Origin: Escherichia coli
Lineage (GTDB): Bacteria; Pseudomonadota; Gammaproteobacteria; Enterobacterales; Enterobacteriaceae
DNA: 64,000 nucleotides
Assembly (NCBI RefSeq): GCF_003334305.1
Contig: NZ_QOWS01000018.1
Strand: one strand, 5' to 3'
Positions 29,659-62,427 of the stretch are shown piece by piece (the first letter of the stretch is position 1; each line of letters begins with the position of its first letter). The notes under the pieces were generated by a model. The model searched no databases and was not told the origin of the DNA. It saw only the letters and a list, made by a program, of their open reading frames with translations. Position numbers and translations under genes: made by a program.

Positions 29659-31755
29659 TTATTGTCCAACCGGTACTTCTCGCTCTGCCGTCATTGGATA
29701 GAGCTGGTATTTGCGTGACAGCATTTGTCCACCATCACGCGTCAATGGTGTCCACGAAACCACCGCGCGGTTGCGGTTAGGTCCAATGGTCATCAAGTCG
29801 AATGGAATCGAGATATAAAAACCTTTACTAAAGCCGCCTTCGCCGTAGTCATCTTTAGATACGTTACTGATTGCCGCCCATACCCCTACCGCCACGCCGC
29901 TGTCAAAGCGTTTGGCGACGTCGATCGTTGCGCCTTTATCTTTTGCCAGATATTGCCCAACGCTAAGTTTCATCAGTACGCCATTGAGCGTCGGCGGGTT
30001 CCAGTAAGCCGTCACGAAACCTGTTGGCGTGGAATAATCGGTGAAACGCATCATGTTGTCCCAGTCACGTTGCTTCACGTAGTTAACGTCCACACCCAGC
30101 GCCCAGCTGGCATCTAGCGGGCGATAAAGCAGCTCGGAACCGACACCGGCGTACATCGTTTCCAGATAACCGCCATACACCTGGCCATAGAAACCATTGC
30201 CTAAGTCGGCAAAGTAGTTCGCCTGCAAGTTGTTGAGATAAACGTCATTGCGAACGTAATCACGGATATGCGTGCGCACGCGGGGCAGGGTAGAGTCCGC
30301 GGGCAACAGCGAAGACTTAAACTTGTCGTAGTTGTTGTAAATATTGGTGAAAATACCGCCATCAAGCAGCAGGTGGTCGGTAAACCAGTAGCGGGCACTG
30401 GACATCAGCCCCAGCTGGAACATATAGAAATCTTCCGGGCCGCCCAGCGACTGTGAAAGTGTTGGGTTGAAAGAGTAGCTAAAGCGATCTTCACGAATAC
30501 GGTAGCCCCGACCAAAGGCAGAAAGATCTTCTGCTTCAACACGTTGTTGTTGAAGTTGCTCTGATTGACCAGGCGCTGTACCAGCCAGCTGTTTGCGCAG
30601 GCTGGCTACGTCGGTTTCGGTAGTCACCATCGCCATATGCTCGCGCTTTTGCGTCACGCTAATCTTCTCAACGCCTTGCGGCAGGTTATTCACCAGAATC
30701 CGGTTGGCACGATCGACCGCTTCGCGAGAATCACGGTATTTGTATTGTTGACCAGACATATACAGCGTCTTATCGCGCAGCTGAATTTCCGGTGCTTCAA
30801 AACCTGCGTTGTACTTCAGCGCGGTAAGTTGGTTCGCTACTGTGGTGTACTGCAATCCTTCAGATTCAGGCGCAGGTTGATATGCCGGTTTTGGCGTATC
30901 GCGCAGGGCAGGGCGCAGATCGTTGAAATTGGTCCGTAACGTGAAGCCAAACATCAACGTGTTACCGCGTTCATAACTCAGGTTGAGATCTGCCCAGCTG
31001 GCAGCGCGATAAACTGCGCCGACGTTGAAATGGCTTGCCTGAGGCAGTTTGCCAGCGAAATCATTCTGGTAATTGTTGCCATCGTATTCGAGTTTCAGAC
31101 GCAGGGGATTCCACGGCGTTTGATACTCAATGCCGCCAAAGATGGAAGCCGGGCCACGAAAGATATCGCTAAAGCTGATATCGCCCGCATCGTGAGACTC
31201 TGCGCGATGACAATATTTATCGCTCACCCGGCAAAACGGGTTGGTAATATTGCCCGCATTACCGGCGTAGCCCCATGCCATCCCGAGGGTGAAATCAAAT
31301 GGCCCCGCTTGCTTGCTGGCCACCAGATACTCACCGTCAAACAGACCCGTACCAGCAATATCACGTTTACCAAACGCCACTTGCGGTAGCCAGTAACCTT
31401 CTTCCCACAGGCGAAGTTTAAAATCGAATGATTTGTCTTTGTATGACTGATCGCCGCTGAAATCTTCCCACTGGCTATATTTGCGTGTGCGCACATCCGT
31501 ATAACGAATGGTGCCTTCCAGCCATGGGAACAGCGCCACGGAGGTGGAGTAGAACCGGTATTGATCGTTATCCCGGTAGTTGACGCTGAATTCACCTTCC
31601 GGTGCGATGCGCGCATTTGGCATCTGCAACAATCCTGTGCCGCCAAAGTCTGATTGCGACGAACCCAGCGGATCCGGGTAGGTTAATACTTCAGCATGAC
31701 AGGCACTGGAGACGGCAATGGCCAGGCAGCTTAAAAGATAAGAATTCTTCTTCAT
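29659..31755 (-). CDS. gfcD: Group 4 capsule outer membrane protein GfcD
   Basis: 698-aa ORF with a signal peptide. Recognised as GfcD/YmcA. Confidence 0.92.
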
Positions 31756-50744: not shown

Positions 50745-52388
50745 ATGAAGCTGCTAGTGACATACATCAGGTGGAGTACTAAAGAGCAAGACTCAGGAGA
50801 CTCCTTAAGACGACAAACAAACCTCATTGATGCTTTCTACTCTAAGCACAAAAACGATTATTACCTTCTTCCTGCTCACAGATACGTTGATAAGGGTAAA
50901 TCTGGTTTTCACCAGCAACATAAGAATCAAGGTTCTGACTTCAGACGTATGTTTGAAAATGTTATGTCTGGGGCTATTCCAGAAGGTTCCCTGATTGTTG
51001 TAGAGAACTTTGACCGCTTCAGTAGGGCTGATATCGACACAGCTATAGATGATGTCAGGCAGATACTGAGGAAGGGAGTCTCTATACTGACTCTGGGAGA
51101 TGGTGAACTCTACGACAAGTCAGCATTAACAGACCCTGTGAAGCTGATTAAGCACATCATCATAGCTGAGCGAGCACATCAGGAATCTCTTGTTAAACAA
51201 AAGCGTATAGCTCAGGTCTGGAACCATAAAACACAGCTTGCAAGAGAACTTAAGAAGCCTATGGGTAAGCAAGCCCCCGGATGGTTAGAGCTATCAGAAG
51301 ACGGTTCACACTACATCGTTGATGAAGATAAAGCGTCACTGGTGAATATCATCTATGACAAGCGTCTTTCTGGTATGTCGATGTTTGCTATCTGCAAATG
51401 GCTAAACGAACAAGGTTACCCGACCATTAATCAGCGTAAGGTCAGAATATCCAAGACTAAGAAACCGGATGGTAACTGGTCAGCTTTAAGCGTTAAACAC
51501 ATCCTGACTTCACGAAGTGTATTAGGTTACCTTCCCGCTAAGATTTCTACAGAAGACCGTAAAACAGTGTTACGTGAAGAAATTGAAGGGTTCTATCCTC
51601 AGATTGTCACAGATTCTAAGTTTTACGCTGTACAGCAACTGTTAGAGGAAACAGGGAAGGGGAAAACATCCAGCGGTGACCACTGGTTATACGTGAACAT
51701 ACTGAAGGGGCTTATCCGTTGTAAGTGTGGGCTTGTAATGACTCCTACAGGGATACGTAAACCCGTTTATCAAGGTACTTACCGTTGCAATGGTAATAAG
51801 GAGTCCCGTTGTAGCTACGGTACAGTGTCCAGAAAGTTACTTGATACACAGCTTTGTAGTCGTCTGTTTAGCAAACTGTCACAGCTACACGATGAAGCTA
51901 CCGATACAGCTAAATTAGATGAACTACAAAGAAGATTAAACACCGTTGATGGTGAACTGGAAAAACTCACTGAGACGCTGATACAGCTTCCTAACATCAC
52001 TCAGATTCAAGAAGCACTACGGGTTAAACAGGAAGAAAAAGATGAACTGATAGTTCAGTTATCACGAGAAAAGGCGAGGGTAAAATCTGTATCAAGCTTG
52101 GATTTAAGCGGTCTTGATATGGAGTCTGTAGAGGGGAGAACTGAAGCCCAGATTATCATTAAGCGTCTGGTGAAAGAGATTGTTGTTTCTGGTAATGAAA
52201 AGCTGGTGGATATATATCTTCACAATGGAAATATGATTCGTGGTTTCCCTCTTGATGGTAAAGATGACCACACCTTAACGCTTGAAGAAGCAACCGATGA
52301 GATGCAGTCACTAGATGATATGCTTATTTTTGGTGAACCAGTAACAAGGATTTATCCTGCTGGTGATATGGAAGAGGTGGACGCTTAG
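50745..52388 (+). CDS. Large serine recombinase (integrase)
   Basis: 547 aa. N-terminal catalytic domain with YIRWSTKEQ (Ser nucleophile) and [11 protein letters not shown] recombinase domain, Cys-rich zinc-ribbon-like segment (CKCG...[14 protein letters not shown]) and a coiled-coil-like C-terminal region ([22 protein letters not shown]) follow. Confidence 0.88.
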
Positions 52389-53173
52389 TATTTTTTATTA
52401 GGGTTCACTGAGTACTTTTTAAGCTTTGAAGCTACTCGACCAGCGTTACTATTAGCATTGGTGACGTTGGTTTTTTCAGCTTCTGTTAAGTCTGAATAGT
52501 CCAGCTTCCAAGCCTTATTACACTTAATCTGAGCATCGAGAATATCATTTCTGATAGCTGGAGCGTAACCGGATACATCGCTAATACTCATTAGCTCTTT
52601 GCACGATAGCATAGGCGCGTTATTGCGTTCAGTGGTCACGTTACCTGCATTCTTCTTACTGGTCACACCACCATCATTCGTAGTCGCGGCTTTTCCAGTT
52701 GCAGCCGAGATATCAGTCTGCCCCACAACAGCTTTGAAGTTAATTTCCTGAAAAGTTAGTTGGATTCTTAATCCGTTTGAAATTCCAACATCTTTAGAGG
52801 CTTTAAAACTTGTGATAATGGAATCATCAATTTTAATTCCGTCTTTACAGATGACAGAAATAATCTGCTTCTGGTCACGCCAGTTTTCCAGAGTGTCAAT
52901 GAAGTTCTCTACTAATTGACCCTGACGAGTTAATAGTAAGCTTCCTTCATAACCAACTACAACGACACCACTGATAGTGATTGTTCTGGGTGCTCTTTGA
53001 ACATTATCTGTGACGGTTTGCCCTGATTGCATGTTCTGTGTAGTCACCTGCATAGGGCTATCAAATTCCATATTTTCAGTTGCTGATAAGGTTAAGAAGG
53101 CATCTACATTATCTCTTAAGTGGAAGTAAACGCCATCTTTGCCACTGTAGCGGATTTGATTGCTAAAAATCAT
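52385..53173 (-). CDS. Putative distal-tail/baseplate (Dit-like) protein
   Basis: Start set at ATG 53173, with AAGGAG six nt upstream, rather than the track's TTG at 53194. It lies immediately downstream of the tape-measure gene. The segment [34 protein letters not shown] resembles, from memory, the N-terminal pattern of Dit-like tail proteins. Not verified. Confidence 0.45.
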
Positions 53174-53190
53174 TAAATTCTCCTTTGATT

Positions 53191-53234
53191 TCAAAGGCTT
53201 AGTGTATTTTAATCATTTTTAACCAAGCCTTTGA
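53191..53234 (-). promoter_or_regulatory. 5'-leader hairpin preceding the Dit-like gene RBS
   Basis: Perfect 10-bp inverted repeat TCAAAGGCTT (53191-53200) / AAGCCTTTGA (53225-53234) with a 24-nt loop, between repeat cassette R1 and the RBS. Confidence 0.5.
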
Positions 53235-53253
53235 TATATAAGTATTTTCTCTG

Positions 53254-53323
53254 TTAAGCGTGAGCTACGTAAATTCTATTTTTCAGTGCGGGTATTAACT
53301 TTGCTTTATTCACGTAGAACACC
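53254..53323 (-). promoter_or_regulatory. Repeat cassette R1 (promoter-like) upstream of the Dit-like gene
   Basis: 70 bp, about 88% identical by eye to 55517-55586. On the gene strand it carries TAGAAT (complement of 53273-53278) with no good -35, plus CTACGTGAA and TACGTA boxes. Confidence 0.55.
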
Positions 53324-53329
53324 GTTAAA

Positions 53330-55498
53330 TCAATCATCTTCTGGGAATGATGAACTTAATAACGTAGCTTCTGCATATTGGTCGTAGATATTACTGCTAA
53401 AGGTCATAAAGCTGGTTTCATCTGGTTTAATGGCAACTTCACCACCAAGTGAAACTTTCACAGGCTCCTGAATACGCTTACTTAAAGCAGAGATTTCATC
53501 CCTCAGACCCTGAATATCTGCACTCGTTAATGCTGAATCTTGCTTAATGTTGTTTAATTCTGGATGATTGAATCTTGCAATATTCATTGTGGCATTGTTA
53601 AACAATTCACCCATTGAACTAAAAATTCTACTCCATCCTTCGTTAATCACATTCGGTTTATTAGGGTCACCAGAATACACAGGATTAAAGTCACTACCCA
53701 CACCTACCCCAGATGGATGCATATTAGCGTTTTTGACTACTTCCTGATTCATAAAATCCAGTGCTTTCTTCAATGCATATAAACCAAGAGTGACACCTCT
53801 GATTTGTGGAATCATTGAAGCTAATGCTAACGCTGTTTCATAACCGTCATCAGCATAACCAATTGCAAGAGCACTACCTACACCACCAGCTACACCTTTC
53901 AGTTTTCCACCACCTTTACCAGTAGCTACCTGACCAGCCACCTGATTAGCTCTTGTACCTAACGTTGTGATTGCTCTTGTCAGGTTCATAACCCCTGTAG
54001 TAGCACTGAATAGTGTCTTTGCAGATAACGCTATAGCAAGACCTTTGACGAAGTTGATAAATCCATCACCGACTTCATCAAGTAGCTTTCGCTTAGTGTC
54101 ATCAAGGCTGTAATAGGTCTTCTTAATCTGTAGAATCCAGCCTTCAAGGTGATTGTTAAAGATACGGATGTCATCTACACCAGCTTTAAGCATGTCGATA
54201 AGTCCACCGATAGCATCACCAGCGATAGAAGAACTCATACCCATTTCACTAAGCAGGTTACTCAGGCTGGATAAGAAGCCATTTAGCTCATCCTGTGAAC
54301 CTGAGAAGATTTTCACCATCGTATCATCCCAGTTGTTAGCCAGTTTCCCTAAAGCTGTCTGAGTGCTCTTAGCGACTTCAGCCCAGCCACCCGCTTTATC
54401 AATCATCAAGCCCATCTGTTTAGCGACTTTAGGGAGAGTATCACTACTTAAAATCTTCCCGTCTTTCATCGCTTTATCAAGCTCTGTAGCAGTCATACCC
54501 AGTGCTTCAGCGAATAGCTTAAATGCACCAGCCATACGGTCACCTAACTGACCACGAAGCTCTTCAGCCTGAATCTTGCCCTTGCTCGCCATCTGCTCAA
54601 ATGCTTTCAAAATGCCGTTTAGCTCATCGTTAGAAAGCCCCATTAAGCGACTCATAGCCGTTGCATTACCAAATAGCTCCTGTGTCTGTTCCTGTGACAT
54701 AGAACCCTGAGCACCTGCTGCAAACTTAGCGTAGCTTGATAGCCCTTCAGAGATATTAAGACCTGTCTTGTCTGCTAAATTTCGAATAAATACCTCAGCT
54801 TCAGATGCTTTATCACCAAGTACAAACTTAGCGGCTCTCTGTGCGGAATCTCGTTTAAGACCTGCATTCATGATGGCCTTGTAAGCGTTAAGAGCACCCA
54901 TCACAGAGTAAAATGCACCAGATAACTTGATTGCATTGCTTGCAAGATTATTAAATGCGTCGCTTGTATTGTTAATGCTGGTGGATGTATGACCTTTAGC
55001 TTTAGCAATTGCTTCTCTGACTGAAGCATTTAACTGAGTCAGCTTCTCATTGAATTTTGAAGAATCCATTGACCCAGCTTTAGCAGATAGCCCGTAAAAC
55101 TGAGATTTGATGTATTTCTGCAAAATAGGGTCAAAGCCTTTTAGCTTAGACATATTAGCTGAGTAAGCCGCTGTGATTGCTCTGTTGCCGCTAATTCGTG
55201 GCTGTCTTGGTTGTCTAAGTGGCTTTAAAGTGTCATCAATTTCCGTTTTAATCTTAAACGCTCTAGTGTTTTTAAGACGCTGCTCAATCTTGGAAACAGT
55301 TTTATCGACATTCTTTTCCATTAGTTTGAGAGAATCATTTAAAGGCGTAGGGTTAACTCTGAATGCCTTATTTAGTCGTTTCTCAATTCTTGATGCGATT
55401 TGCATCGTTTGTTTCTCGGCTTTTTCCAAGCCTTTTAAAACTTTCTGAGAGCTAAAACTTAGCTCAATCAAAAAATCATCAACTTTAAATTGTGCCAT
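53330..55498 (-). CDS. Phage tail tape-measure protein
   Basis: 722 aa, Ala/Gly/Leu-rich and predicted largely helical. The segment LNGILKAFEQMASKGKIQAEELRGQLGDRMAGAFKLFAEALGMTATELDKAMKDGKILSSDTL matches the conserved tape-measure core domain as I recall it (TIGR02675-type). A Gly-rich tract GKGGGKLKGVAGGVG follows. RBS is AAGAGGTG. Confidence 0.85.
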   Translation of the reverse strand: MAQFKVDDFLIELSFSSQKVLKGLEKAEKQTMQIASRIEKRLNKAFRVNPTPLNDSLKLMEKNVDKTVSKIEQRLKNTRAFKIKTEIDDTLKPLRQPRQPRISGNRAITAAYSANMSKLKGFDPILQKYIKSQFYGLSAKAGSMDSSKFNEKLTQLNASVREAIAKAKGHTSTSINNTSDAFNNLASNAIKLSGAFYSVMGALNAYKAIMNAGLKRDSAQRAAKFVLGDKASEAEVFIRNLADKTGLNISEGLSSYAKFAAGAQGSMSQEQTQELFGNATAMSRLMGLSNDELNGILKAFEQMASKGKIQAEELRGQLGDRMAGAFKLFAEALGMTATELDKAMKDGKILSSDTLPKVAKQMGLMIDKAGGWAEVAKSTQTALGKLANNWDDTMVKIFSGSQDELNGFLSSLSNLLSEMGMSSSIAGDAIGGLIDMLKAGVDDIRIFNNHLEGWILQIKKTYYSLDDTKRKLLDEVGDGFINFVKGLAIALSAKTLFSATTGVMNLTRAITTLGTRANQVAGQVATGKGGGKLKGVAGGVGSALAIGYADDGYETALALASMIPQIRGVTLGLYALKKALDFMNQEVVKNANMHPSGVGVGSDFNPVYSGDPNKPNVINEGWSRIFSSMGELFNNATMNIARFNHPELNNIKQDSALTSADIQGLRDEISALSKRIQEPVKVSLGGEVAIKPDETSFMTFSSNIYDQYAEATLLSSSFPEDD

Positions 55499-55516
55499 TG
55501 TTCATATTTCACCTCT

Positions 55517-55586
55517 TTAAGCGTGAGCTACGTAAATTCTATTTTTCAGTGTGGGTATTAGCTTTACAGATTTCACGTAGCACACA
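55517..55586 (-). promoter_or_regulatory. Repeat cassette R2 (promoter-like) upstream of the tape-measure gene
   Basis: Second copy of the 70-bp cassette. TAGAAT (complement of 55536-55541) lies about 38 nt upstream of the TMP ATG, directly downstream of a terminator. Confidence 0.55.
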
Positions 55587-55616
55587 TAGGATTCGATAGA
55601 AGACTATCTCATATAC

Positions 55617-55656
55617 AAAAAAGGAGAGTTACCGATGTCACTCGATAATCTCTCCC
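55617..55656 (-). terminator. Rho-independent terminator ending the 236-aa/71-aa transcription unit
   Basis: On the minus strand, GGGAGAGATTA...TAACTCTCC forms a hairpin (stems at 55650-55655 and 55623-55628) followed by a T6 run (55622-55617). Confidence 0.7.
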
Positions 55657-55699
55657 GTAGATTTTTACCCAACCAATTCTATTAGAAGCTAATCTCAAA

Positions 55700-55915
55700 T
55701 TAATGGTAAACGTAAGAATACATCCCATCATCACCTAAAATCTGTGCGTCACATGGTAATTTATCTAAGCACCATGAAGGAATCTTACGTACCTTTGGTT
55801 TATGTGAGGTGATAACTTGATGCTGATTTTTAATTCGTAGCTTTGGTTTAGTCTGAAGCTTTAAGTTCTCACAAACAGACTTAATAAGTTCATAGCGTTC
55901 TGTTAAATCAATCAT
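55700..55915 (-). CDS. Hypothetical protein (71 aa)
   Basis: ORF MIDLTERYELIKSVCENLKLQTKPKLRIKNQHQ... with RBS AAGAGGTGG. No family recognised. Confidence 0.6.
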   Translation of the reverse strand: MIDLTERYELIKSVCENLKLQTKPKLRIKNQHQVITSHKPKVRKIPSWCLDKLPCDAQILGDDGMYSYVYH

Positions 55916-55938
55916 TCACCACCTCTTTTAATTCATAG

Positions 55939-56649
55939 TTAAAGTGCCTTGCTATATTTCTGAGAAATCTTCACTAACTGCTCAATATCAGCCTGCATAG
56001 CAATCTTCTTCTGCGTTTCATATGCAGAAATAAGCTCTTTCATAGCCTGAAGCTCTCTTGAGAGATACAACTTAACATTTTCAAGTTGCTTGTTACGTGA
56101 TGCCAAGATGTTCTGTCTGGCAAGTTCAGCGAGTTCTTCATCGCTCTTATTAGTCGTGTAAATAAACTGACCAGCACCCCTTGAAGCTTTAACCATCTTC
56201 ACAATTCGATATCCAGCAGGAAGACTACTAATCACGGCTGCGACGTTTTCTTGAAAAGTACCAAAACCATCATTGTCTTCGTATGTGAAGTAAACATACG
56301 GCTTCTGTGACAATTCATCCTGAATCTCAAATTCTGACGGCTCAATAGCTGATTGCATCAGGGTAACTTTACTGTAAGCATCATCTAGTTTAATACGCTG
56401 TGCTTTTAGCAGTGGGTAATATTCACGCTCAAGCTCAAGTAATGCTTCAGTTTTGCATACATCAGGCATCTCTTGAGGCTCAGGAGACACAAAGATGATT
56501 TCCTTTGGTGACATTCGGATTTCTTGCTCAAGCTTAATTCTTTCATCGTGTTCTTTACGCTGAATAGCGATAGCTGGATGTTCAGTCTGTGGCGACCAGT
56601 CACCGAAGCTATCAATCACTTTGCCATTAATGTAAATATCATTTGTCAT
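55939..56649 (-). CDS. Hypothetical protein (236 aa) with a coiled-coil-like C-terminus
   Basis: ORF MTNDIYINGKVIDSFGDWSPQTEHPAIAIQ... with RBS GAGGAA. The C-terminal 70 aa are heptad-rich (LENVKLYLSRELQAMKELISAYETQKKIAMQADIEQL). No family recognised. Confidence 0.7.
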   Translation of the reverse strand: MTNDIYINGKVIDSFGDWSPQTEHPAIAIQRKEHDERIKLEQEIRMSPKEIIFVSPEPQEMPDVCKTEALLELEREYYPLLKAQRIKLDDAYSKVTLMQSAIEPSEFEIQDELSQKPYVYFTYEDNDGFGTFQENVAAVISSLPAGYRIVKMVKASRGAGQFIYTTNKSDEELAELARQNILASRNKQLENVKLYLSRELQAMKELISAYETQKKIAMQADIEQLVKISQKYSKAL

Positions 56650-56679
56650 TGTTTTTTCCTCTTCTAAGCTAAAGTATTT

Positions 56680-56765
56680 CAGTTTTTAAAAAGCACACCT
56701 GACAGCCTATCTAAACTTAGAAGAGACTTAAAAGGCGGTTTGCCAAGTATGCTTTTTAAAAGCTG
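56680..56765 (-). promoter_or_regulatory. Long inverted repeat in the leader of the 236-aa gene
   Basis: Arms CAGTTTTTAAAAAGCACAC (56680-56698) and GTATGCTTTTTAAAAGCTG (56747-56765) are complementary at about 17 of 19 positions, separated by about 48 nt. Confidence 0.5.
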
Positions 56766-56801
56766 AAAAAGCCCTAGATAACTAAAACGCTATAAAGGGC
56801 T
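56765..56801 (-). terminator. Attenuator-like hairpin plus T-run inside the leader
   Basis: On the minus strand, AGCCCT (56801-56796), a 20-nt loop, AGGGCT (56775-56770), then TTTTT (56769-56765). Located about 115 nt upstream of the 236-aa gene start. Confidence 0.4.
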
Positions 56802-57008
56802 AAGGTGAAGAAATTAAAACATCTAAAGGATTCAATAACGAATGAACAAAGACTTTTCGAGATAGCCTCTCAGGTTGTATAAGAGGCCATGTAGCGAAAA
56901 GCATTGCACCTTTCAGAATGTTCGGTATAGAACATACCTCACCAACTCAGAATATCCATCCATCGGATTATTGAAATAAATAAGAGAGAAATTCTCTCTA
57001 TAATTAAA

Positions 57009-57037
57009 ATTATGTCATGCTTAAGGTTATTTGTCAA
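57009..57037 (-). promoter_or_regulatory. Sigma70-type promoter (minus strand)
   Basis: TTGACA (complement of 57032-57037), a 17-bp spacer, then CATAAT (complement of 57009-57014). Followed at about +3 by the palindrome AGAGAGAA-A-TTCTCTCT (56983-56999). Confidence 0.55.
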
Positions 57038-57062
57038 CAGCTTTTTAACAGATTGGTAACAT

Positions 57063-57128
57063 TTATACTTTAATAGATGCACCTGCAATCATACCAATCA
57101 ACACAAAACAGAGAATCACCAATTCCAT
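57063..57128 (-). CDS. Candidate 21-aa hydrophobic peptide
   Basis: Hand-translated: MELVILCFVLIGMIAGASIKV. Its ATG overlaps the TAA of the upstream gene (TAATG), suggesting translational coupling. Confidence 0.4.
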   Translation of the reverse strand: MELVILCFVLIGMIAGASIKV

Positions 57129-57451
57129 TAATGCACCACCTTCGAATCCGTAACCAGAATATTATCGCTGTACAAAATTGCTATAGCCGCCTTGAGATAT
57201 TTTTCAGGGCTAACGCTGTATTTGTTCGTTTGCTCGACAACCAATCTTTTCATGTTGCTGTCTTTAATTGGTAGCATCATTCGAGGCTCGTTAAACTCCA
57301 CCGACTGAATAAAGTCAGAGATGCTTTCCGCATTATCAGTCATTAACTCTAACAACTTATCAAAGTCAATGCTAACACCTACATCAGTGAAAGCCTGAAT
57401 CATCATGGCGGTGTCGGTATCAATAAAAATCTGTAATTCGTAATTGTTCAT
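57128..57451 (-). CDS. Hypothetical acidic protein (107 aa)
   Basis: Start set at ATG 57451 (MNNYELQIFIDTD) with AAGGAG upstream. The track's TTG start at 57484 is rejected. No family recognised. Confidence 0.65.
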   Translation of the reverse strand: MNNYELQIFIDTDTAMMIQAFTDVGVSIDFDKLLELMTDNAESISDFIQSVEFNEPRMMLPIKDSNMKRLVVEQTNKYSVSPEKYLKAAIAILYSDNILVTDSKVVH

Positions 57452-57606
57452 TTTTAAAATCTCCTTTTTACCAGACCTCCTCAATCGCTCTGTAACGAGC
57501 TAAACAGTCTTTTTCAGGGGTAGCCTGTACAGTGGTATTACCCACCCTAAAATAAGATAGTTTTTTGCGTCAGAATGCGATTGAGAGCGTCTGAGAAGCT
57601 GTTTTT

Positions 57607-57894
57607 CTAATTTCTCTTAAAGTCTCGGACTTGCATAAGATTTTTTGGTCTGGTATCGGCTCTGTTACCATTTCGATGGATAATTTGCTTGTTGGATTGA
57701 TAGCCATGATAAAGAAACCAGACAACATATTTCACGTAGAAAGTATATCGGCCTATATTAAATGTTTTGTTGCCGTAGTCGTCGGTGTTTATCGTGACTG
57801 ACTCTCCATCAGACCAGCACAGGGAATCACTGGATTCATCATAGATAAGGTGTTCTGCAAAATATCTTCTAACATCTTCATTCCAAGGTTTCAT
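57607..57894 (-). CDS. HNH-like small protein (degenerate motif)
   Basis: 95 aa. YVVWFLYHGYQSNKQIIHRNGNRADTRPKNL resembles the HNH_3-type pattern (aHRlvw...G..idHiNGn..DNR..NL), but the usual Asp preceding the His and the DNR Asn are substituted. Confidence 0.5.
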   Translation of the reverse strand: MKPWNEDVRRYFAEHLIYDESSDSLCWSDGESVTINTDDYGNKTFNIGRYTFYVKYVVWFLYHGYQSNKQIIHRNGNRADTRPKNLMQVRDFKRN

Positions 57895-58106
57895 AAAACC
57901 TCCTCACCCCAATAACCTAATTCAATCTTGTGACGCTCAAACCATTCCGGTTTAACTGCTGTTTTCAGTACTTCATTTGGGCCAATGGCTTTAATGAAAA
58001 TATCTTTTGAGTTATGGATGTCACCGAATCCGTTTCCTTCAATCAGGAGGTCGGAGATGTAGCGAATCATTTTATCCGTGTGGTATTCAAAGGTAACGCA
58101 TAGCAT
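57891..58106 (-). CDS. Hypothetical protein (71 aa)
   Basis: ORF coupled at both ends: TAATG with the upstream gene and ATGA with the downstream gene. No family recognised. Confidence 0.6.
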   Translation of the reverse strand: MLCVTFEYHTDKMIRYISDLLIEGNGFGDIHNSKDIFIKAIGPNEVLKTAVKPEWFERHKIELGYWGEEVL

Positions 58107-58387
58107 TAAACCTCCAGAGACAGCTTGTGAATCTTAAGACTCAATAGACGGGCAATATCAATTTTAAAGCCGTTAAGTCCCTTCAAAGTATCTAAAGCGT
58201 CCTGAGTAATTCGGATGTGTTTACGACCTTTAGAGACTGGATATTTAAGTAAATCCGACTCAGTAACCTCTTTAGCAATTGCAAGCTGCATAACAGTCTG
58301 ATGAGGTAAGTTAGTAGCTCGTTTAATTCTGGCAAGCTCGTTAAAAGCTTCCTCTGAAATGCGGGTTAAAGTGTGTTTGTTTTTCAT
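58106..58387 (-). CDS. Putative tandem ribbon-helix-helix DNA-binding protein (93 aa)
   Basis: Two internal segments look like an RHH beta-strand plus helix: KHTLTRISEEAFNELARIKR and RKHIRITQDALDTLKGLNG. Inference from the pattern only. Confidence 0.4.
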   Translation of the reverse strand: MKNKHTLTRISEEAFNELARIKRATNLPHQTVMQLAIAKEVTESDLLKYPVSKGRKHIRITQDALDTLKGLNGFKIDIARLLSLKIHKLSLEV

Positions 58388-58388
58388 T

Positions 58389-58943
58389 TTAAAATTCCTC
58401 TGTAACTAAATACGGGTCAAATTCAAAGTCTGGTTCACTGGTTGTAAGGCTGATATTTCCAACTTCCGCATGATGATTAATTGTCTCAATAACTTTCATG
58501 CAAATAGTGGCTAAGTTAGCGCAATATTTATCACTTGGTAATTCGTAGCTAAGTCTGGTTGCTTGTCTTTGAAGATGGCTCGTCACTGTGCTTGAACTAA
58601 TCTCATCAAGACTTCGCAGTAAATAAAAAACCTTCCGGTGATAATTATCTCTTCCAAGACTGCGACAAGTACCGATAATTACATCTTCAATTCGTGGCGG
58701 TAATTGCTCGTAAGAATCAAAGCCCATCAAGAAAGTTTTTAAAGTATTCTCTTTTTCTTTGCGTGCTGGCATAAATCTGTCTCGTGGCGTAATGCTACGA
58801 ATGACCGCTTCAATGTTCTTACGTTCGGATTTGCTAAAGGTTGGGACTTCGTAGCTGGTGGGGGTGTCTGTGTGGCTGTAACCGTTGTGTCTGTTGCGTT
58901 CTCTTGATGCCTGAAGCATCGCTCTAAATTCTCTGTCGTTCAT
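58389..58943 (-). CDS. Hypothetical protein (184 aa), first gene of the leftward operon
   Basis: ORF MNDREFRAMLQASRERNRHNGYSHTD... directly downstream of the promoter at 58994-59022. No family recognised. Confidence 0.65.
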   Translation of the reverse strand: MNDREFRAMLQASRERNRHNGYSHTDTPTSYEVPTFSKSERKNIEAVIRSITPRDRFMPARKEKENTLKTFLMGFDSYEQLPPRIEDVIIGTCRSLGRDNYHRKVFYLLRSLDEISSSTVTSHLQRQATRLSYELPSDKYCANLATICMKVIETINHHAEVGNISLTTSEPDFEFDPYLVTEEF

Positions 58944-58993
58944 TCATAAGCTAGTCCTTATAATTGTTAATTCTCTGTTAACTTATATATACA

Positions 58994-59022
58994 ATACTAG
59001 CATTTTCAAAGACTAATGTCAA
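58994..59022 (-). promoter_or_regulatory. Sigma70-type promoter of the leftward operon
   Basis: TTGACA (complement of 59017-59022), a 17-bp spacer, then TAGTAT (complement of 58994-58999). Confidence 0.6.
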
Positions 59023-59029
59023 GCATTTT

Positions 59030-59059
59030 TTAACATTTCATTAACATCTGTGGTATAAT
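59030..59059 (+). promoter_or_regulatory. Divergent extended -10 promoter (rightward)
   Basis: TTAACA (59030-59035), then TGG-TATAAT (TG at 59051-59052, TATAAT at 59054-59059). Back-to-back with the leftward promoter. Confidence 0.55.
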
Positions 59060-59186
59060 GGTTCTATGGGGAGAGTAAAATATAAAGGCGTGGCTATGAG
59101 GTTTATTCGATAGGGGTTGGTACAAGCCCAACCAACCGAATCAACTATGTATGTCACATGGTATTGCATTGCACACAGGAAATTTA

Positions 59187-59363
59187 ATGGTAAATCTCCC
59201 TCCTGAACTGGGGTCACCTGATGTATGGGCTGGTGGAGGTATCGGGCTGATTGCAGGTCTGTTACTCCGCTACGTCCTTGTCAGAGTGCTTGTTGTGTTC
59301 CGATTGTTCGGTCGTACATGGACGCTTGACCTTAAGGATAATGAGCACACAGAACCCCGTTAA
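59187..59363 (+). CDS. Candidate small membrane protein (58 aa; 70 aa if started at 59151)
   Basis: MVNLPPELGSPDVWAGGGIGLIAGLLLRYVLVRVLVVFRLFGRTW... contains one hydrophobic helix. AGGAA lies 5 nt upstream of ATG 59187, while the ATG at 59151 has no RBS. The local composition is more GC-rich than its neighbours. Confidence 0.45.
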   Translation: MVNLPPELGSPDVWAGGGIGLIAGLLLRYVLVRVLVVFRLFGRTWTLDLKDNEHTEPR

Positions 59364-59406
59364 GCTCCCTTCAAATCCCCCTGTACGAGATGGCATAGGG
59401 GTGTCT

Positions 59407-59422
59407 TTAGCATTTTGTGCTA
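59407..59422. promoter_or_regulatory. Operator-like inverted repeat TTAGCA-N5-TGCTA
   Basis: TTAGCATTTTGTGCTA. The 18-nt box TCTTTAGCATTTTGTGCT (59404-59421) recurs at 60678-60695, and each copy is followed by (A)CTTGACA(G/A)AA. Confidence 0.45.
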
Positions 59423-59483
59423 TCTATTAAAAAATAACTTGACAGAACCGGAAAGCTGTATCTATCAGGTATTCACCTCTCTG

Positions 59484-59559
59484 ACAGTAACTTCTAAAAG
59501 TTCTTATTTTTCAATGAGTTGTAATCACCCATATATAGAGAACTGACAAGTCTCTTCAC
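59484..59559 (+). repeat. 76-bp direct repeat, copy 1
   Basis: ACAGTAACTTCTAAAAGTTCTTATTTTTCAATGAGTTGTAATCACCCATATATAGAGAACTGACAAGTCTCTTCAC. About 89% identical to copy 2, and the last 31 nt are identical. Confidence 0.9.
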
Positions 59560-59578
59560 AATTAACTCTGTAACCTTA

Positions 59579-59654
59579 ACAGTGATTTCTAAAAATGCTT
59601 ATTTTTCAATAAGTTGTAATTAGCCATATATAGAGAACTGACAAGTCTCTTCAC
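59579..59654 (+). repeat. 76-bp direct repeat, copy 2
   Basis: ACAGTGATTTCTAAAAATGCTTATTTTTCAATAAGTTGTAATTAGCCATATATAGAGAACTGACAAGTCTCTTCAC. The period is 95 bp. Confidence 0.9.
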
Positions 59655-59971
59655 GGAGAACTTCCTGGACTCACTAAGATACAAGGCGATAACCCCAGAA
59701 AGGGAGAGCCACCTTCTAATTGGTATTGTTATGAGGATGCTTCATCCGAATCATCTACCAATCCCTAAACCGACTTCTTAAACAATCTTTACAGACCCCG
59801 TTCACCAGTCTCAATATTTTTATTTCTCGCTCTTCGTTTGTTGCTCGTTTCTATTATTGAGGGGGTTTGAAAAACCTCTGTAAAATAACCCTTCCAGTAA
59901 AAAGCGAATAACCCCAGAGAGGGGGAATCGCCTCTTTAACATTCTCATAATCAGTGCTCTATATGAGAATT

Positions 59972-60640
59972 TCAGCCCAACCTTTGAACAATCTTGTAAG
60001 TGGTGCTTAGAGGCATTCTTAGCGATTCTGCGATGCTCTTGACGGATTGCCCTTGGCCATGCAGTTTAATCAGCCTGTCAAGCGTCTGTGCATCGTGTAT
60101 ATGAGGTCTTCCACGTAAACCACCCCTGTTAACCACGGCAAGTAAAAGCATTGTGTCGCCACAATAGATTGTTTGTGTAACTTCAACCTTCGGTTTACGG
60201 GGTGTGTTCCTGTATATCAAAACGCAACTTGCAAACGGTGAACGCACTACAACACCTTTCTTCCCTGCTGGTGGAAGGTATTTGACTGCTCGGTGTAACG
60301 TTCGAATCTCATGCAGAAAGGGGTTTGTATATACACACCGAAGCCAGTAAGTTGTCTTTGACCTGTGCGGAACCAGACATACACACACATCAGCTTCATG
60401 GGATTTTAGGAGGAACCTTTCAGCCATGCTAAACGGCGGGTTAACGAAGACCCGTTCACCAACCCATGATTGATTGTGAATATCATCGGTGAACCGTGGC
60501 AACAATGCGTCATGCTCAGTTGCAGCACCATCCATCGAAAAACCAAATTCACGGTGTAGGTTACGAAATAAACGATACGGTGTACGCCAGTCATCAGAAC
60601 CACCATGATAACGACCGACATTGATTATTGGATGTGACAC
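59972..60640 (-). CDS. Phage Dam-type N6-adenine DNA methyltransferase fused to a C-terminal HTH
   Basis: 222 aa with a GTG start. SDDWRTPYRLFRNLHREFGFSMDGAAT and VFVNPPFS (NPPF catalytic motif) fit the phage Dam family (pfam05869-like, from memory). The C-terminal GQSVKSIAESLRMPLSTTYKIVQRL looks like a resolvase-type HTH. Confidence 0.75.
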   Translation of the reverse strand: MSHPIINVGRYHGGSDDWRTPYRLFRNLHREFGFSMDGAATEHDALLPRFTDDIHNQSWVGERVFVNPPFSMAERFLLKSHEADVCVCLVPHRSKTTYWLRCVYTNPFLHEIRTLHRAVKYLPPAGKKGVVVRSPFASCVLIYRNTPRKPKVEVTQTIYCGDTMLLLAVVNRGGLRGRPHIHDAQTLDRLIKLHGQGQSVKSIAESLRMPLSTTYKIVQRLG

Positions 60641-60677
60641 AAGCGAAGCGCCCCTCTTAGTATATTTCTTAATCGTC

Positions 60678-60724
60678 TCTTTAGCATTTAGTGCTTTTTG
60701 TTAAGTTTAGCACTTTTTGCTAAA
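60678..60724. promoter_or_regulatory. Two operator-like inverted repeats upstream of the methyltransferase gene
   Basis: TTAGCATTTAGTGCT (60681-60695) and the perfect TTTAGCA-CTTTT-TGCTAAA (60706-60724), followed by TTGACA at 60735-60740. Confidence 0.45.
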
Positions 60725-61142
60725 GACAAAACACTTGACAAAATGGTAAGATTGTTCACATGACCTTACTTAACAGATTCTTAAGAGCTTTGAAACGAAC
60801 TGTTTAACAAGGTCACTACCTCTGGTCTTATCGTTCCCTCTCTTCTTGGTAGTTCTGTTAAGTATCTTTTCAGGTATCTCTTACAGTCACTGTTAAGATA
60901 GAACCTACCTTCGGTTTCATGGTTCTCTTCCTCCCGTTAAATATCCCTTCACAGTCAGACTAAATAACACCTCTGTAGTTTCTTGGTAGAATCTTTCAAG
61001 GTAACTTAACTCTGAGTTTATGAAGTTGACCTTAGTCAATGTTTGTGAAGGTGTTACAGAGCATGTTCTCTAGGTCTGTGTAGCTCACTAAGCGAGAGAG
61101 GGGATATGTGACCATAGGGGAACCCCTCCTGTTAAAAGTTTC

Positions 61143-61170
61143 TTGATGTTATCATCACAATATGTATAAT
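61143..61170 (+). promoter_or_regulatory. Sigma70-type promoter (plus strand) in an ORF-free region
   Basis: TTGATG (61143-61148), a 16-bp spacer, then TATAAT (61165-61170). Confidence 0.55.
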
Positions 61171-61176
61171 CACCAA

Positions 61177-61337
61177 CTGTACAGACACCTTAACGGTTTC
61201 TCTACACCTCACTATGGCTAGGTAGGGTATGGTTTAGCTTGGTACGGCTAGGTTAGGTCTGGTTTGGTTAGGTATGGGTGGATTGTCGTAGCCACGTTAA
61301 AAATCGACTTATAGGGACTCTTTCGGGAGTCCTTTTT
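61177..61337 (+). ncRNA. Candidate ~160-nt small RNA with tandem 15-nt G/T-rich units
   Basis: Bounded by the promoter at 61143-61170 and the terminator at 61315-61337. It contains no ORF longer than 5 codons. Five consecutive 15-nt units begin at 61216, 61231, 61246, 61261 and 61276 (GGCTAGGTAGGGTAT / GGTTTAGCTTGGTAC / GGCTAGGTTAGGTCT / GGTTTGGTTAGGTAT / GGGTGGATTGTCGTA). Confidence 0.35.
61315..61337 (+). terminator. Rho-independent terminator (plus strand)
   Basis: GGACTC (61315-61320), loop TTTCGG, GAGTCC (61327-61332), then TTTTT (61333-61337). Confidence 0.65.
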
Positions 61338-61541
61338 AGTTTGTATAAAATCTGTACAGGAGTTATCAGGCTTCTAAAATTTTTATAAAAAATAATCAGA
61401 CCTCTTCTAAGCCTCTTCAACCAAATCTTTCGAAAATATCTGACAGATGTCTGTAGCTGCTAAGTACCCGTCACACCAGCTATGTGACCCCCTTGGCAAA
61501 AAAGCCAAATATCAGCTACATCCATGTAACTATTCAGTAAC

Positions 61542-62093
61542 TTATTTAGCAAGTCTGTAATAAGTTGCTCTAGAGATTCCTAACTCTTCCTGAATCTGCA
61601 ACCTCGTCTTACCTTGTGAAATAAGCGTCTGTACAGCCTCTGAAGAAGCCTTTACAGGCCTCCCCATATGTACCCCTTCAGCTTTAGCACGTTCAATACC
61701 AGCCTTTCTACGCTCTGCTATCAAGCTTCTTTCAAGCTGTGCCAACGTTGACATAATGCCTAACATTGCTTCACCCATAGCGCTTGATAAGTCAAACCCT
61801 TCTCTAAGGCTGATAACTGTCACACCTTTAGCCTGTAGCGCTTTAACCGTTGATAACACATCAATTGTGTCACGTCCAAGACGGTCTACAGCTACCACAA
61901 CTACGGTGTCACCTTCTCGTGCATAAGCTAACAAACTACTGAAACCGTTTCTTAAAGAAGCTTTGACAGAACCACTGACAGCTTCATCAGTGAACCATTT
62001 AGCAATGTTGTACCCTGCCTCTTCAATTTGCATTTGCTGGTTAGTGATGGATTGGTCATCTGTACTCACCCTGCAATATCCAAGTATCGCCAT
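61542..62093 (-). CDS. Small serine recombinase (resolvase/invertase family)
   Basis: 183 aa. MAILGYCRVSTDDQ (Ser nucleophile), VVAVDRLGRD, an E-helix LAQLERSLIAERRKAGIERAKAEG, GRP, and a C-terminal HTH ISRATYYRLAK. Confidence 0.9.
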   Translation of the reverse strand: MAILGYCRVSTDDQSITNQQMQIEEAGYNIAKWFTDEAVSGSVKASLRNGFSSLLAYAREGDTVVVVAVDRLGRDTIDVLSTVKALQAKGVTVISLREGFDLSSAMGEAMLGIMSTLAQLERSLIAERRKAGIERAKAEGVHMGRPVKASSEAVQTLISQGKTRLQIQEELGISRATYYRLAK

Positions 62094-62107
62094 ACATCCC
62101 CCTTAGA

Positions 62108-62231
62108 AGTCTCAAAAGTTAGTCTCATAAGTTTAGCTGTCTCATAATCCAAAAACAACCTTTTGAGACTACTTGAGGGTGCATTCTACCGTTACGTTGA
62201 AAGTGTCTCAAAAGGAAGTCCTTTTAAGACT
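62108..62231. promoter_or_regulatory. res-like cluster of recombinase binding sites
   Basis: There are six GTCTCA / T(G/A)AGAC half-sites. They include a 28-bp inverted pair TGTCTCAAAAGGAAGTCCTTTTAAGACT (62204-62231), a 33-bp inverted pair TGTCTCATAATCCAAAAACAACCTTTTGAGACT (62138-62170), and AGTCTCAAAAGTTAGTCTCATAA (62108-62130) next to the recombinase start. Confidence 0.6.
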
Positions 62232-62427
62232 GGTTATGAAGGAGCTATGAAGATTTTAGGAGGGTAACTATAACCATCACTTTCTAACTTTCACGTAGGA
62301 AATCGTTAAGTTTCTTGATAGTTACACCATGTGACCAACTATCTATATATCGTTATATAGCCCTGTATATAACACTTTTCTAGGAGTCGAGAGAGGGACG
62401 ACTAACACGATACAGTTTACCCTGAAA

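Follow-up and report, generated by a model that had tools for sequence, protein, structure and literature searches.

A conserved, duplicated hairpin cassette beside two tail genes and a repeated 9-mer in an Escherichia coli genomic island

Does a short sequence that recurs several times in one orientation within a small genomic island mark the sites of a common regulator? The question is raised by the 9-mer TTCACGTAG in a ~12-kb island (12.1 kb, 40% G+C) that lies between wrbA and ymdF in Escherichia coli strain A7, at ~50.7-62.6 kb of the 64,000-nucleotide (nt) stretch of contig NZ_QOWS01000018.1 analysed here (the window, meaning the whole of that stretch). A first-pass annotation had listed four exact, co-oriented copies in the island, starting at 53309, 55572, 57731 and 62290, and had read them as a shared protein-binding site. 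Their coordinates and orientation are right, and so is the account of their surroundings: three of the four are intergenic, the 57731 copy lies inside an HNH open reading frame (ORF), and the promoter-like box AAGTTTCTTGATAGTTA does follow the 62290 copy. The window holds five copies, all on the plus strand with none on the minus strand; the fifth, which was absent from that list, is in host DNA at 30074. The observation is real and its significance was overstated. The four island copies very probably represent one duplicated, conserved cassette, which supplies two of them as its arms, and two chance matches. Judged on sequence, it is fairly probable that the best overall explanation is a cis-acting hairpin in the leaders of two tail genes, probably in mRNA, together with two coincidences. 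The genuine feature is an undescribed, strongly constrained cis-element of a conventional kind.

The 9-mer and its hairpin cassette

The copies at 53309 and 55572 both lie in a 69-nt direct repeat (D2, 88% identical; 53254-53322 and 55517-55585). There are therefore three independent occurrences rather than four, so the argument that four copies defy chance counted a single repeat twice, and the co-orientation of these two copies, which had served as evidence, is the mere result of direct duplication. In each repeat an inverted partner of the 9-mer, TTTACGTAG, lies on the other strand at a distance of 44 nt, and the two pair to give a stem of 9-10 bp. Read on the gene (minus) strand, the cassette runs [G]CTACGTGAA(A/T), a 25-35-nt loop, TT(T/C)ACGTAG and then CTCACGCTTAA(A/C)AGAG, and the 3' arm TT(T/C)ACGTAG is followed by GCTCACGCTTAA and then by the ribosome-binding region. 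The two copies stand on either side of a tape-measure gene, and a 155-nt spacer between the stop codon of that gene and the gene for a Dit-like baseplate protein holds, in this order, copy 1, a second hairpin and the ribosome-binding site (RBS). The features are the following.

53256..53323, minus strand: hairpin cassette copy 1 (universal), in the spacer from the tape-measure stop codon to the Dit-like gene; covariance model R1 76.4 bits, E 4e-18; member of D2.
53309..53317, minus strand: 5' arm of copy 1, CTACGTGAA on the gene strand and hence TTCACGTAG on the plus strand; pairs with 53265-53273.
53265..53273, minus strand: 3' arm of copy 1, TTTACGTAG on the gene strand; one G.U pair in the sense RNA.
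55519..55586, minus strand: hairpin cassette copy 2 (facultative), between the terminator-like hairpin and the tape-measure RBS; R1 92.7 bits, E 1.5e-22; fold z = -3.4.
55572..55580, minus strand: 5' arm of copy 2, CTACGTGAA on the gene strand; exact 9-mer, and from the fold.
55528..55536, minus strand: 3' arm of copy 2, TTTACGTAG on the gene strand; found by the inverted-partner search and in the sequence.
53330..55498, minus strand: tape-measure protein gene, 722 aa; Pfam TMP_3 5e-22, PHROG 4036; cassettes on both sides.
52385..53173, minus strand: Dit-like baseplate gene, 262 aa; Pfam Dit_like 2e-20, phrog_3721 7e-130; downstream of copy 1.
53183..53242, minus strand: second hairpin, between copy 1 and the Dit RBS; inverted repeat I11, 21-nt arms, 81% complementary.
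55617..55656, minus strand: terminator-like hairpin, GGGAGAG...CTCTCC with a T6 run behind it, downstream of the 71-aa gene and immediately ahead of copy 2; read from the sequence and conserved in relatives; not called by the terminator scan because its loop exceeds 8 nt.

As sense RNA the cassettes fold into a 10-bp stem with short extensions, at -14.2 kcal/mol for the Dit-upstream copy and -22.2 kcal/mol (z = -3.4) for the tape-measure-upstream copy, and the antisense strand of the window cassettes folds less well. In the upstream copy of the window the stem is up to 19 bp long if two mismatches are allowed; other units have only 9-10 bp, and some alleles have a stem of 14 perfect base pairs.

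The conservation of this arrangement was followed in relatives. A search with the tape-measure protein gave nine informative viral-contig relatives, from 97% down to 43% identical, and a BLAST search with the island gave six further E. coli islands; the arm-independent set, for whose retrieval the arms played no part, comprises 16 islands. In the viral-contig relatives (tape-measure proteins 43-97% identical) the arm pair recurs with a spacing of 44-45 nt at the same two positions around the tape-measure gene. The Dit-upstream cassette is intact in 16 of the 16 islands, and in 82 of 86 overall. The tape-measure-upstream cassette is intact in seven of the 16, has a variant 3' arm in one and is absent from eight; its presence or absence is clean, with the empty site reading tgtatatg|acgcttaa. 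A pattern scan of metagenomes, a search biased towards the arm pattern, returned 106 stretches; of the 80 loci that were read, 6 were random matches (about the number expected) and 74 belonged to the same island family and carried the arm pair. In this pattern-biased set the upstream copy decays in several ways, with a 27-nt insertion splitting the 5' arm in L016, L089, L102 and L108 and the 3' half deleted in L086. Half of the islands do without the tape-measure-upstream copy and in others it is decaying, so that the conserved function appears to belong to the tape-measure/Dit spacer. Among 5,426 complete E. coli genomes, 245 carry the cassette, and in the window and every locus nhmmer and covariance model R1 find the full unit only at the two cassette positions.

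Within the cassette, constraint is concentrated in the arms. Across 15 distinct units mean column identity is 83%, the 8-nt core of the 5' arm, CTACGTGA, is invariant, and the ninth base is the same in 13 of the 15. This core is intact in all 24 cassettes of the 16 arm-independent islands, against ~4.5 expected. The 3' arm varies at one position (T or C, opposite G), apart from a rare ACGTAC allele. The loops are unrelated alleles that are swapped wholesale, and L078 has a wholly different loop between identical arms. Both cassette copies are thus conserved above the expectation from their flanks, and the 57731 and 62290 copies are not. The proposal of a shared binding site therefore stands in part. 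At 53309 and 55572 the 9-mer is a constrained and probably recognised sequence, its arms being invariant even at 43% tape-measure protein identity; the copies at 57731 and 62290 are unconserved and partnerless. These two and the host copy are listed here.

57731..57739, plus strand: solo 9-mer in the HNH ORF (coding strand ..C TAC GTG AA.), judged coincidental; no partner arm, no model match.
62290..62298, plus strand: solo 9-mer between genes at the right end of the island, ~200 nt upstream of the small recombinase gene; taken to be a coincidence; no partner arm, no model match.
30074..30082, plus strand: fifth copy, an exact match in host DNA ~20 kb outside the island, unrelated.

Neither the 57731 nor the 62290 copy has a partner arm, even when one mismatch is allowed, and nhmmer and the covariance model, run without filters, give no match at 57731, 62290 or 30074, so that the solo copies share only the 9-mer with the cassette. 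The module around 57731 is 96-98% identical among relatives, and the 9-mer is kept in 5 of 10 of them, or in 5 of 8 where 6.1 are expected from the flanks: it is intact in L008, L011, L027, L029 and L031, changed to TTCACATAG in L004, L028, L030 and L032, and changed to TTCACGCAG in L005. The commonest of these changes, TTCACATAG, is a synonymous TAC to TAT in the HNH frame. The 62290 region is 79-91% identical among relatives, and its 9-mer is kept in 2 of 8 (L004 and L032) against 1.6 expected, with changes in the six others. Both sites give weak promoter-like calls on the gene strand (GTGAAA-16/18-TATAGT/TATCAT, 9/12), and the region has 25 promoter-like calls, compared with 26.4 in shuffled sequence. 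Because the solo copies have no partner arm and no model match and are lost at a neutral rate, we judge them to be coincidences with no function as such. We also considered the 62290 copy as an inversion boundary, since the small recombinase gene is oppositely oriented in L028, L031 and L032, and rejected this: there are no inverted alignments or inverted homology, and the recombinase module is replaced or absent.

How surprising the repetition is depends on how the 9-mer was chosen. It is rarer in A7 host DNA than in the island, with a single copy on both strands of 252 kb (~0.05 per 12 kb), and to this extent the background count of the first-pass annotation was sound; the assumption of independence and the significance drawn from it fail. 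The 9-mer was picked post hoc, and any statistic must allow for motif selection. The island contains 53 distinct 9-mers with at least three same-strand copies and four with at least four (TATTTTTCA, AAAATCTGT, GCTGGTGGA and TTCACGTAG), and in second-order Markov simulations at least one 9-mer reaches at least four copies in 51% of runs. When the second copy of two long repeats is masked, TTCACGTAG is one of 46 three-copy 9-mers in the island. With the cassette taken as given, the probability that any of 28 shared 9-mers gains at least two extra same-strand copies is 0.07-0.12. Because copy-number statistics alone are borderline, the comparative data must decide, and it is conservation that does so.

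Possible roles and rival explanations

The cassette lies in the leader of the Dit-like gene in all islands examined and in that of the tape-measure gene in about half, and from there it would act in cis on their expression. Its likeliest form would be a hairpin in the sense mRNA, with a stem of 9-14 bp just 5' of the RBS, which might determine mRNA processing or stability, or be bound by a sequence-specific protein. The split of the four copies, the layout of the cassette, its pattern of conservation and the neutral loss of the solo copies are shown by the comparisons; the regulatory role and the RNA level of action are what we infer. If the decomposition into a cassette and two coincidences is accepted, we lean slightly towards an RNA hairpin rather than a DNA site; the combined proposal of a cis-acting hairpin in the leader mRNA is a tentative one. 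Its position just 5' of the RBS is fixed, as expected of an RNA role, and copy 1 probably lies within a tape-measure/Dit co-transcript. The variable position of the core stem toggles between G.U and G-C on the sense strand, with 18 G.U cells against one A.C cell in the alignment.

Several observations weigh against this interpretation. The G.U asymmetry comes from only two alignment columns, and the sense fold is more stable than the antisense fold in just 9 of 15 units. The 9-bp core has no compensatory change, so that RNA structure is not demonstrated, and an invariant sequence is just as compatible with a DNA site: six of its nine pairs are constant, one alternates between G.U and G-C, two are unpaired in two units each, and no pair has changed on both sides. 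The covariation score of the whole structure is 0.091, compared with 0.071 in shuffles, and it is reached by 40 of 500 shuffles. The L008/L016 allele (GATTTC) breaks pairs without compensation, and the invariance of the arms could come in part from gene conversion or recombination between the copies. The element of coincidence also has its price. If TTCACGTAG alone is considered a priori, 0.035-0.088 extra copies are expected, and at each of three Markov orders a set of 1000 simulations never produced two; to find the exact arm twice more on the same strand in 12 kb is nominally unlikely, at ~0.004 by a Poisson estimate that uses the upper expected value. Because of this low a priori probability, a weak role of the solo copies in the A7 lineage, as auxiliary sites, keeps a slim residual probability.

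Among known systems, the proposed leader hairpin is closest to intercistronic mRNA hairpins such as the RNase III sites of phage T7 and the repetitive extragenic palindromic (REP)-type stabilisers of malE-malF, which likewise place a stable stem-loop between cistrons or just 5' of an RBS, recur with similar sequence at two or more junctions within late or structural operons, and lack a U-tract and so do not terminate. The location of the cassette would fit an RNase III processing site, which comprises about two helical turns of double-stranded RNA between cistrons. In contrast to these systems, the core stem of the cassette is only 9-14 bp and its loop is large (25-35 nt), its arms are strictly conserved rather than covarying, and it occurs as only two copies, in one island family. 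Rfam 15 was searched down to E = 1, and neither the cassettes nor the solo sites matched any family. The cassette is not an intrinsic terminator, as the stem leads into GCTCACGCTTAA with no T-run and neither copy appears in the terminator scan.

The strict invariance of the arms points to recognition by a protein, which could take place on RNA or on DNA. The arms, each with an ACGT centre, might thus be a DNA operator that binds an island- or host-encoded regulator and brackets a weak or non-canonical promoter in the loop, an alternative that we regard as somewhat unlikely. It would explain why the arms are invariant without covariation while the intervening sequence is free to change, and the loop always has a TAnnnT hexamer just before the 3' arm (TAGAAT, TATTTT, TAGATT or TAGTTT). 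A new promoter would also make sense where the terminator-like hairpin precedes the tape-measure cassette, and the island encodes several small uncharacterised proteins and a Dam fusion with a helix-turn-helix (HTH) domain as candidate regulators. However, no sigma-70-like promoter is called on the minus strand in 53256-53323 or 55519-55586 with -35/-10 hexamers at 16-18-nt spacing, and the -35 positions of the window alleles, read from the sequence, are poor. A centre-to-centre spacing of 45 bp would be uncommon for a single dimer, the terminator-like hairpin is retained in the half of the islands that have no tape-measure-upstream copy, and the only wobble accepted at the variable position is G.U on the sense strand. 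Phage and island operator palindromes resemble the cassette in being short, sequence-invariant inverted repeats ahead of co-regulated genes; unlike them, the cassette, as a candidate operator, has half-sites 45 bp apart that would form a hairpin in the transcript, and the extra 'sites' in the island are unconserved. Two other promoter types were tried and set aside. The likeness of ACGTAGCTCAC to the T7-type promoter TACGACTCAC is superficial and the spacing differs; Felix O1 has no phage RNA polymerase (PMC3185647), and none is encoded by the island either. For a sigma-32-like arrangement, CGTGAA-N15-ACCCACAC, the -10 element matches at only ~4/8 positions and the spacing varies between alleles.

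It is very unlikely that the cassette is selfish or neutral palindromic DNA that does nothing for the island, such as an inserted miniature inverted repeat or the scar of a duplication. The clean presence/absence polymorphism upstream of the tape-measure gene, the 10-14-bp terminal inverted repeats and the decay of that copy by the 27-nt insertion, truncation or deletion are what such an origin predicts. The cassette is, however, confined to two fixed positions in one orientation, with no scattered copies in the window, the loci or the Felixounavirus genome, and neither the filled nor the empty junction shows the target-site duplication of elements like miniature inverted-repeat transposable elements (MITEs), REP or enterobacterial repetitive intergenic consensus (ERIC) sequences. 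Nor does such an origin account for a Dit-upstream copy that no arm-independent island has lost and that is nearly universal overall, or for arms that stay invariant when the loop is replaced. The mobile promoter/stem-loop cassettes (PeSLs) of T4-type phages and enterobacterial ERIC/MITE-like units are alike in being small intergenic palindromes with presence/absence polymorphism beside structural genes of a mosaic genome; the cassette differs from them in that it is undispersed, holds two fixed positions, has no target duplication and no recognisable promoter, and does not coincide with mosaic breakpoints. The idea that the cassettes themselves are mosaic breakpoints or recombination linkers was likewise discarded, homology breaking inside the tape-measure coding region.

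The original proposal, in which all four TTCACGTAG copies are sites for one element-encoded DNA-binding protein that governs a small regulon, is highly improbable. It draws on the presence of four copies in 12 kb where host frequency predicts ~0.05, on the nominal improbability of two extra copies if the arm is set a priori, on the intergenic location of three of the four, and on the arm itself, which holds GTGAAA on the gene strand and gives both solo sites their weak (9/12) promoter-like calls. Against this, two of the copies are one duplication and repeated 9-mers are common, half of the simulations (51%) containing at least one four-copy 9-mer; the solo copies are lost at a neutral rate, with a synonymous substitution as the commonest change at 57731, and have no partner arm or shared flank; and the promoter-like calls are no commoner than in shuffles (25 versus 26.4). 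The case carries a caution, as an exact 9-mer found four times in 12 kb resembled a regulon and resolves into a duplicated cassette and two neutral coincidences.

It is scarcely credible that the cassettes are res-like sites at which the small serine recombinase excises or exchanges the tape-measure gene, as direct repeats on both sides of one gene, the 183-aa resolvase/invertase of the island and the hypervariable middle of the tape-measure gene might suggest, because the recombinase module is replaced or absent in L028-L032 where the cassette is kept, half of the islands have only one cassette, homology breaks inside the tape-measure coding region and not at the cassettes, and the 45-bp arm spacing is unlike the subsites of this recombinase family, which are 26-34 bp.

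The link to Felix-O1-like phages

The two genes that carry the cassette connect the island with phages. The Dit-like gene is 92-95% nt-identical over 52632-53158 to more than 200 genomes of Felixounavirus, the virulent Felix-O1-like myophages. Residues 8-178 of its protein match, at 87-100% identity, the protein whose gene immediately follows the tape-measure gene of the phage, and over the last 85 residues the identity is only 24-38%. With its N-terminal two-thirds near-identical and its C-terminal 85 residues divergent, the Dit-like protein is, from these alignments, a chimera. Between the tape-measure protein of the island and those of Felixounavirus the identity is only ~30%, and the phage has no homologue of any other island protein. 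The near-identity of the Dit-like gene suggests a very recent exchange of DNA between the island and Felix-O1-like phages and probably a functional relationship between the two, in which the island would be a satellite or a tail-assembly decoy.

The cassette itself does not come with the phage. In phage vB_EcoM_DE7 the tape-measure and Dit genes abut with neither spacer nor cassette, no cassette is found elsewhere in the genome (the best covariance-model match has E = 0.8), and a sensitive blastn search of a phage collection with the cassette gave no match. The cassette would thus be an innovation of the island, since the corresponding phage genes abut without it, and its origin as a helper-phage motif was rejected on its absence from vB_EcoM_DE7. 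The exact 9-mer occurs three times in the 86 kb of this phage, somewhat above a rough expectation of less than one copy, and never in the hairpin arrangement. As a separate observation, CTACGTGAA and CTACGTAAA lie at 83293 and 83364 of vB_EcoM_DE7 (L143/L144), 71 nt apart in direct orientation inside a phage ORF.

A more ambitious reading of the locus would make the cassette the cis-regulatory switch of an undescribed island family that targets Felix-O1-like virulent phages, its arms being read by a regulator that turns on the tail genes upon infection. In such a scheme a ~12-kb element, integrated by a large serine recombinase and equipped with its own tape-measure gene and a chimeric baseplate protein (the N-terminal 170 residues near-identical to those of the phage), would either hijack phage tails as a satellite or, as a decoy, poison their assembly; the regulator of the invariant arms would itself be encoded by the island, and the solo 9-mers might be weak auxiliary sites. 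We consider this distinctly unlikely as a whole. The Felix O1 genome paper describes the temporal regulation of the phage as unknown (PMC3185647). Our literature search on wrbA/ymdF islands, tape-measure-bearing satellites and Felixounavirus satellites found no description of an island of the A7 type or of a Felixounavirus satellite. Felix-O1-like phages are used in typing and biocontrol of Salmonella and E. coli, and the cassette marks the two tail genes of an island with an apparently very recent exchange of DNA with virulent felixounaviruses; if the island is indeed a satellite of these phages or a defence against them, the cassette would be the obvious handle on the control of its tail genes.

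Other features of the island

At its left end the island encodes a large serine recombinase on the plus strand, which is convergent with all other island genes. Rightward from it, on the minus strand, follow the genes for the Dit-like baseplate protein, the tape-measure protein and the 71-, 236- and 107-aa proteins, and then those for the HNH protein, the 59-, 93- and 184-aa proteins, the Dam-HTH fusion and the small resolvase/invertase. Throughout the island family (loci L003-L011 and L027-L032) the tape-measure and Dit-like genes are the sole tail genes and are always terminal, adjoining the large serine recombinase, and the island is not a truncated prophage. Most of the islands are integrated between wrbA and ymdF, and others lie beside yegS (L031) and a DUF72 gene (L030). 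PADLOC detected no defence system in the island, its sole match being an orphan methyltransferase for the Dam-HTH protein, and NCBIfam was uninformative on the unnamed island proteins.

The middle of the tape-measure gene (~53600-54970) is not alignable between islands at the DNA level, and the first ~500 nt of the gene are 85-95% identical and the neighbouring HNH module 96-98%. Because the central DNA is unalignable while the start of the gene and the HNH module are well conserved, the tape-measure gene is, on these comparisons, a hypervariable mosaic module. The small serine recombinase gene (183 aa; 61542-62093, minus strand) lies in another variable module at ~61500-62270. The window orientation of this gene (minus) is shared with L027, a different gene in the opposite orientation (plus) takes its place in L028, L031 and L032, and the module is absent in L029 and L030. 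It is bracketed by the inverted repeat I17 (61525-61544 / 62307-62326). The core of the promoter-like box mentioned above, AGTTTCTTG, occurs three times around the module, at 60977, 61137 and 62309, and related inverted repeats are I16 (58725-58744 / 61129-61148) and I17.

Strain A7 carries a second small island (L034, NZ_CP028767.1 ~1,020,000-1,032,300), which lies beside a P4-like satellite and encodes a major capsid protein, a 612-aa hypothetical protein, a 'phage baseplate protein' and a tyrosine integrase; it has no tblastn similarity to the wrbA island and no cassette.

Further repeats occur within the wrbA island. A 76-nt unit is present twice, at 59484-59559 and 59579-59654 (95-nt spacing, 91% identical), in the large intergenic region that extends from the 184-aa gene cluster to the Dam-HTH gene; the pair is conserved in relatives and looks like iterons or an origin. 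Both units contain TATTTTTCA, a 9-mer also found in the hairpin cassette. The 9-mer GCTGGTGGA, which contains the Chi octamer GCTGGTGG, has four co-oriented plus-strand copies, at 52202, 54977, 59229 and 60267, despite the 40% G+C content of the island. The longest inverted repeat of the island, at 56677-56768, immediately precedes the 236-aa gene; its 28-nt arms are 86% complementary and separated by 36 nt, and relatives share part of it with 90-95% conservation.

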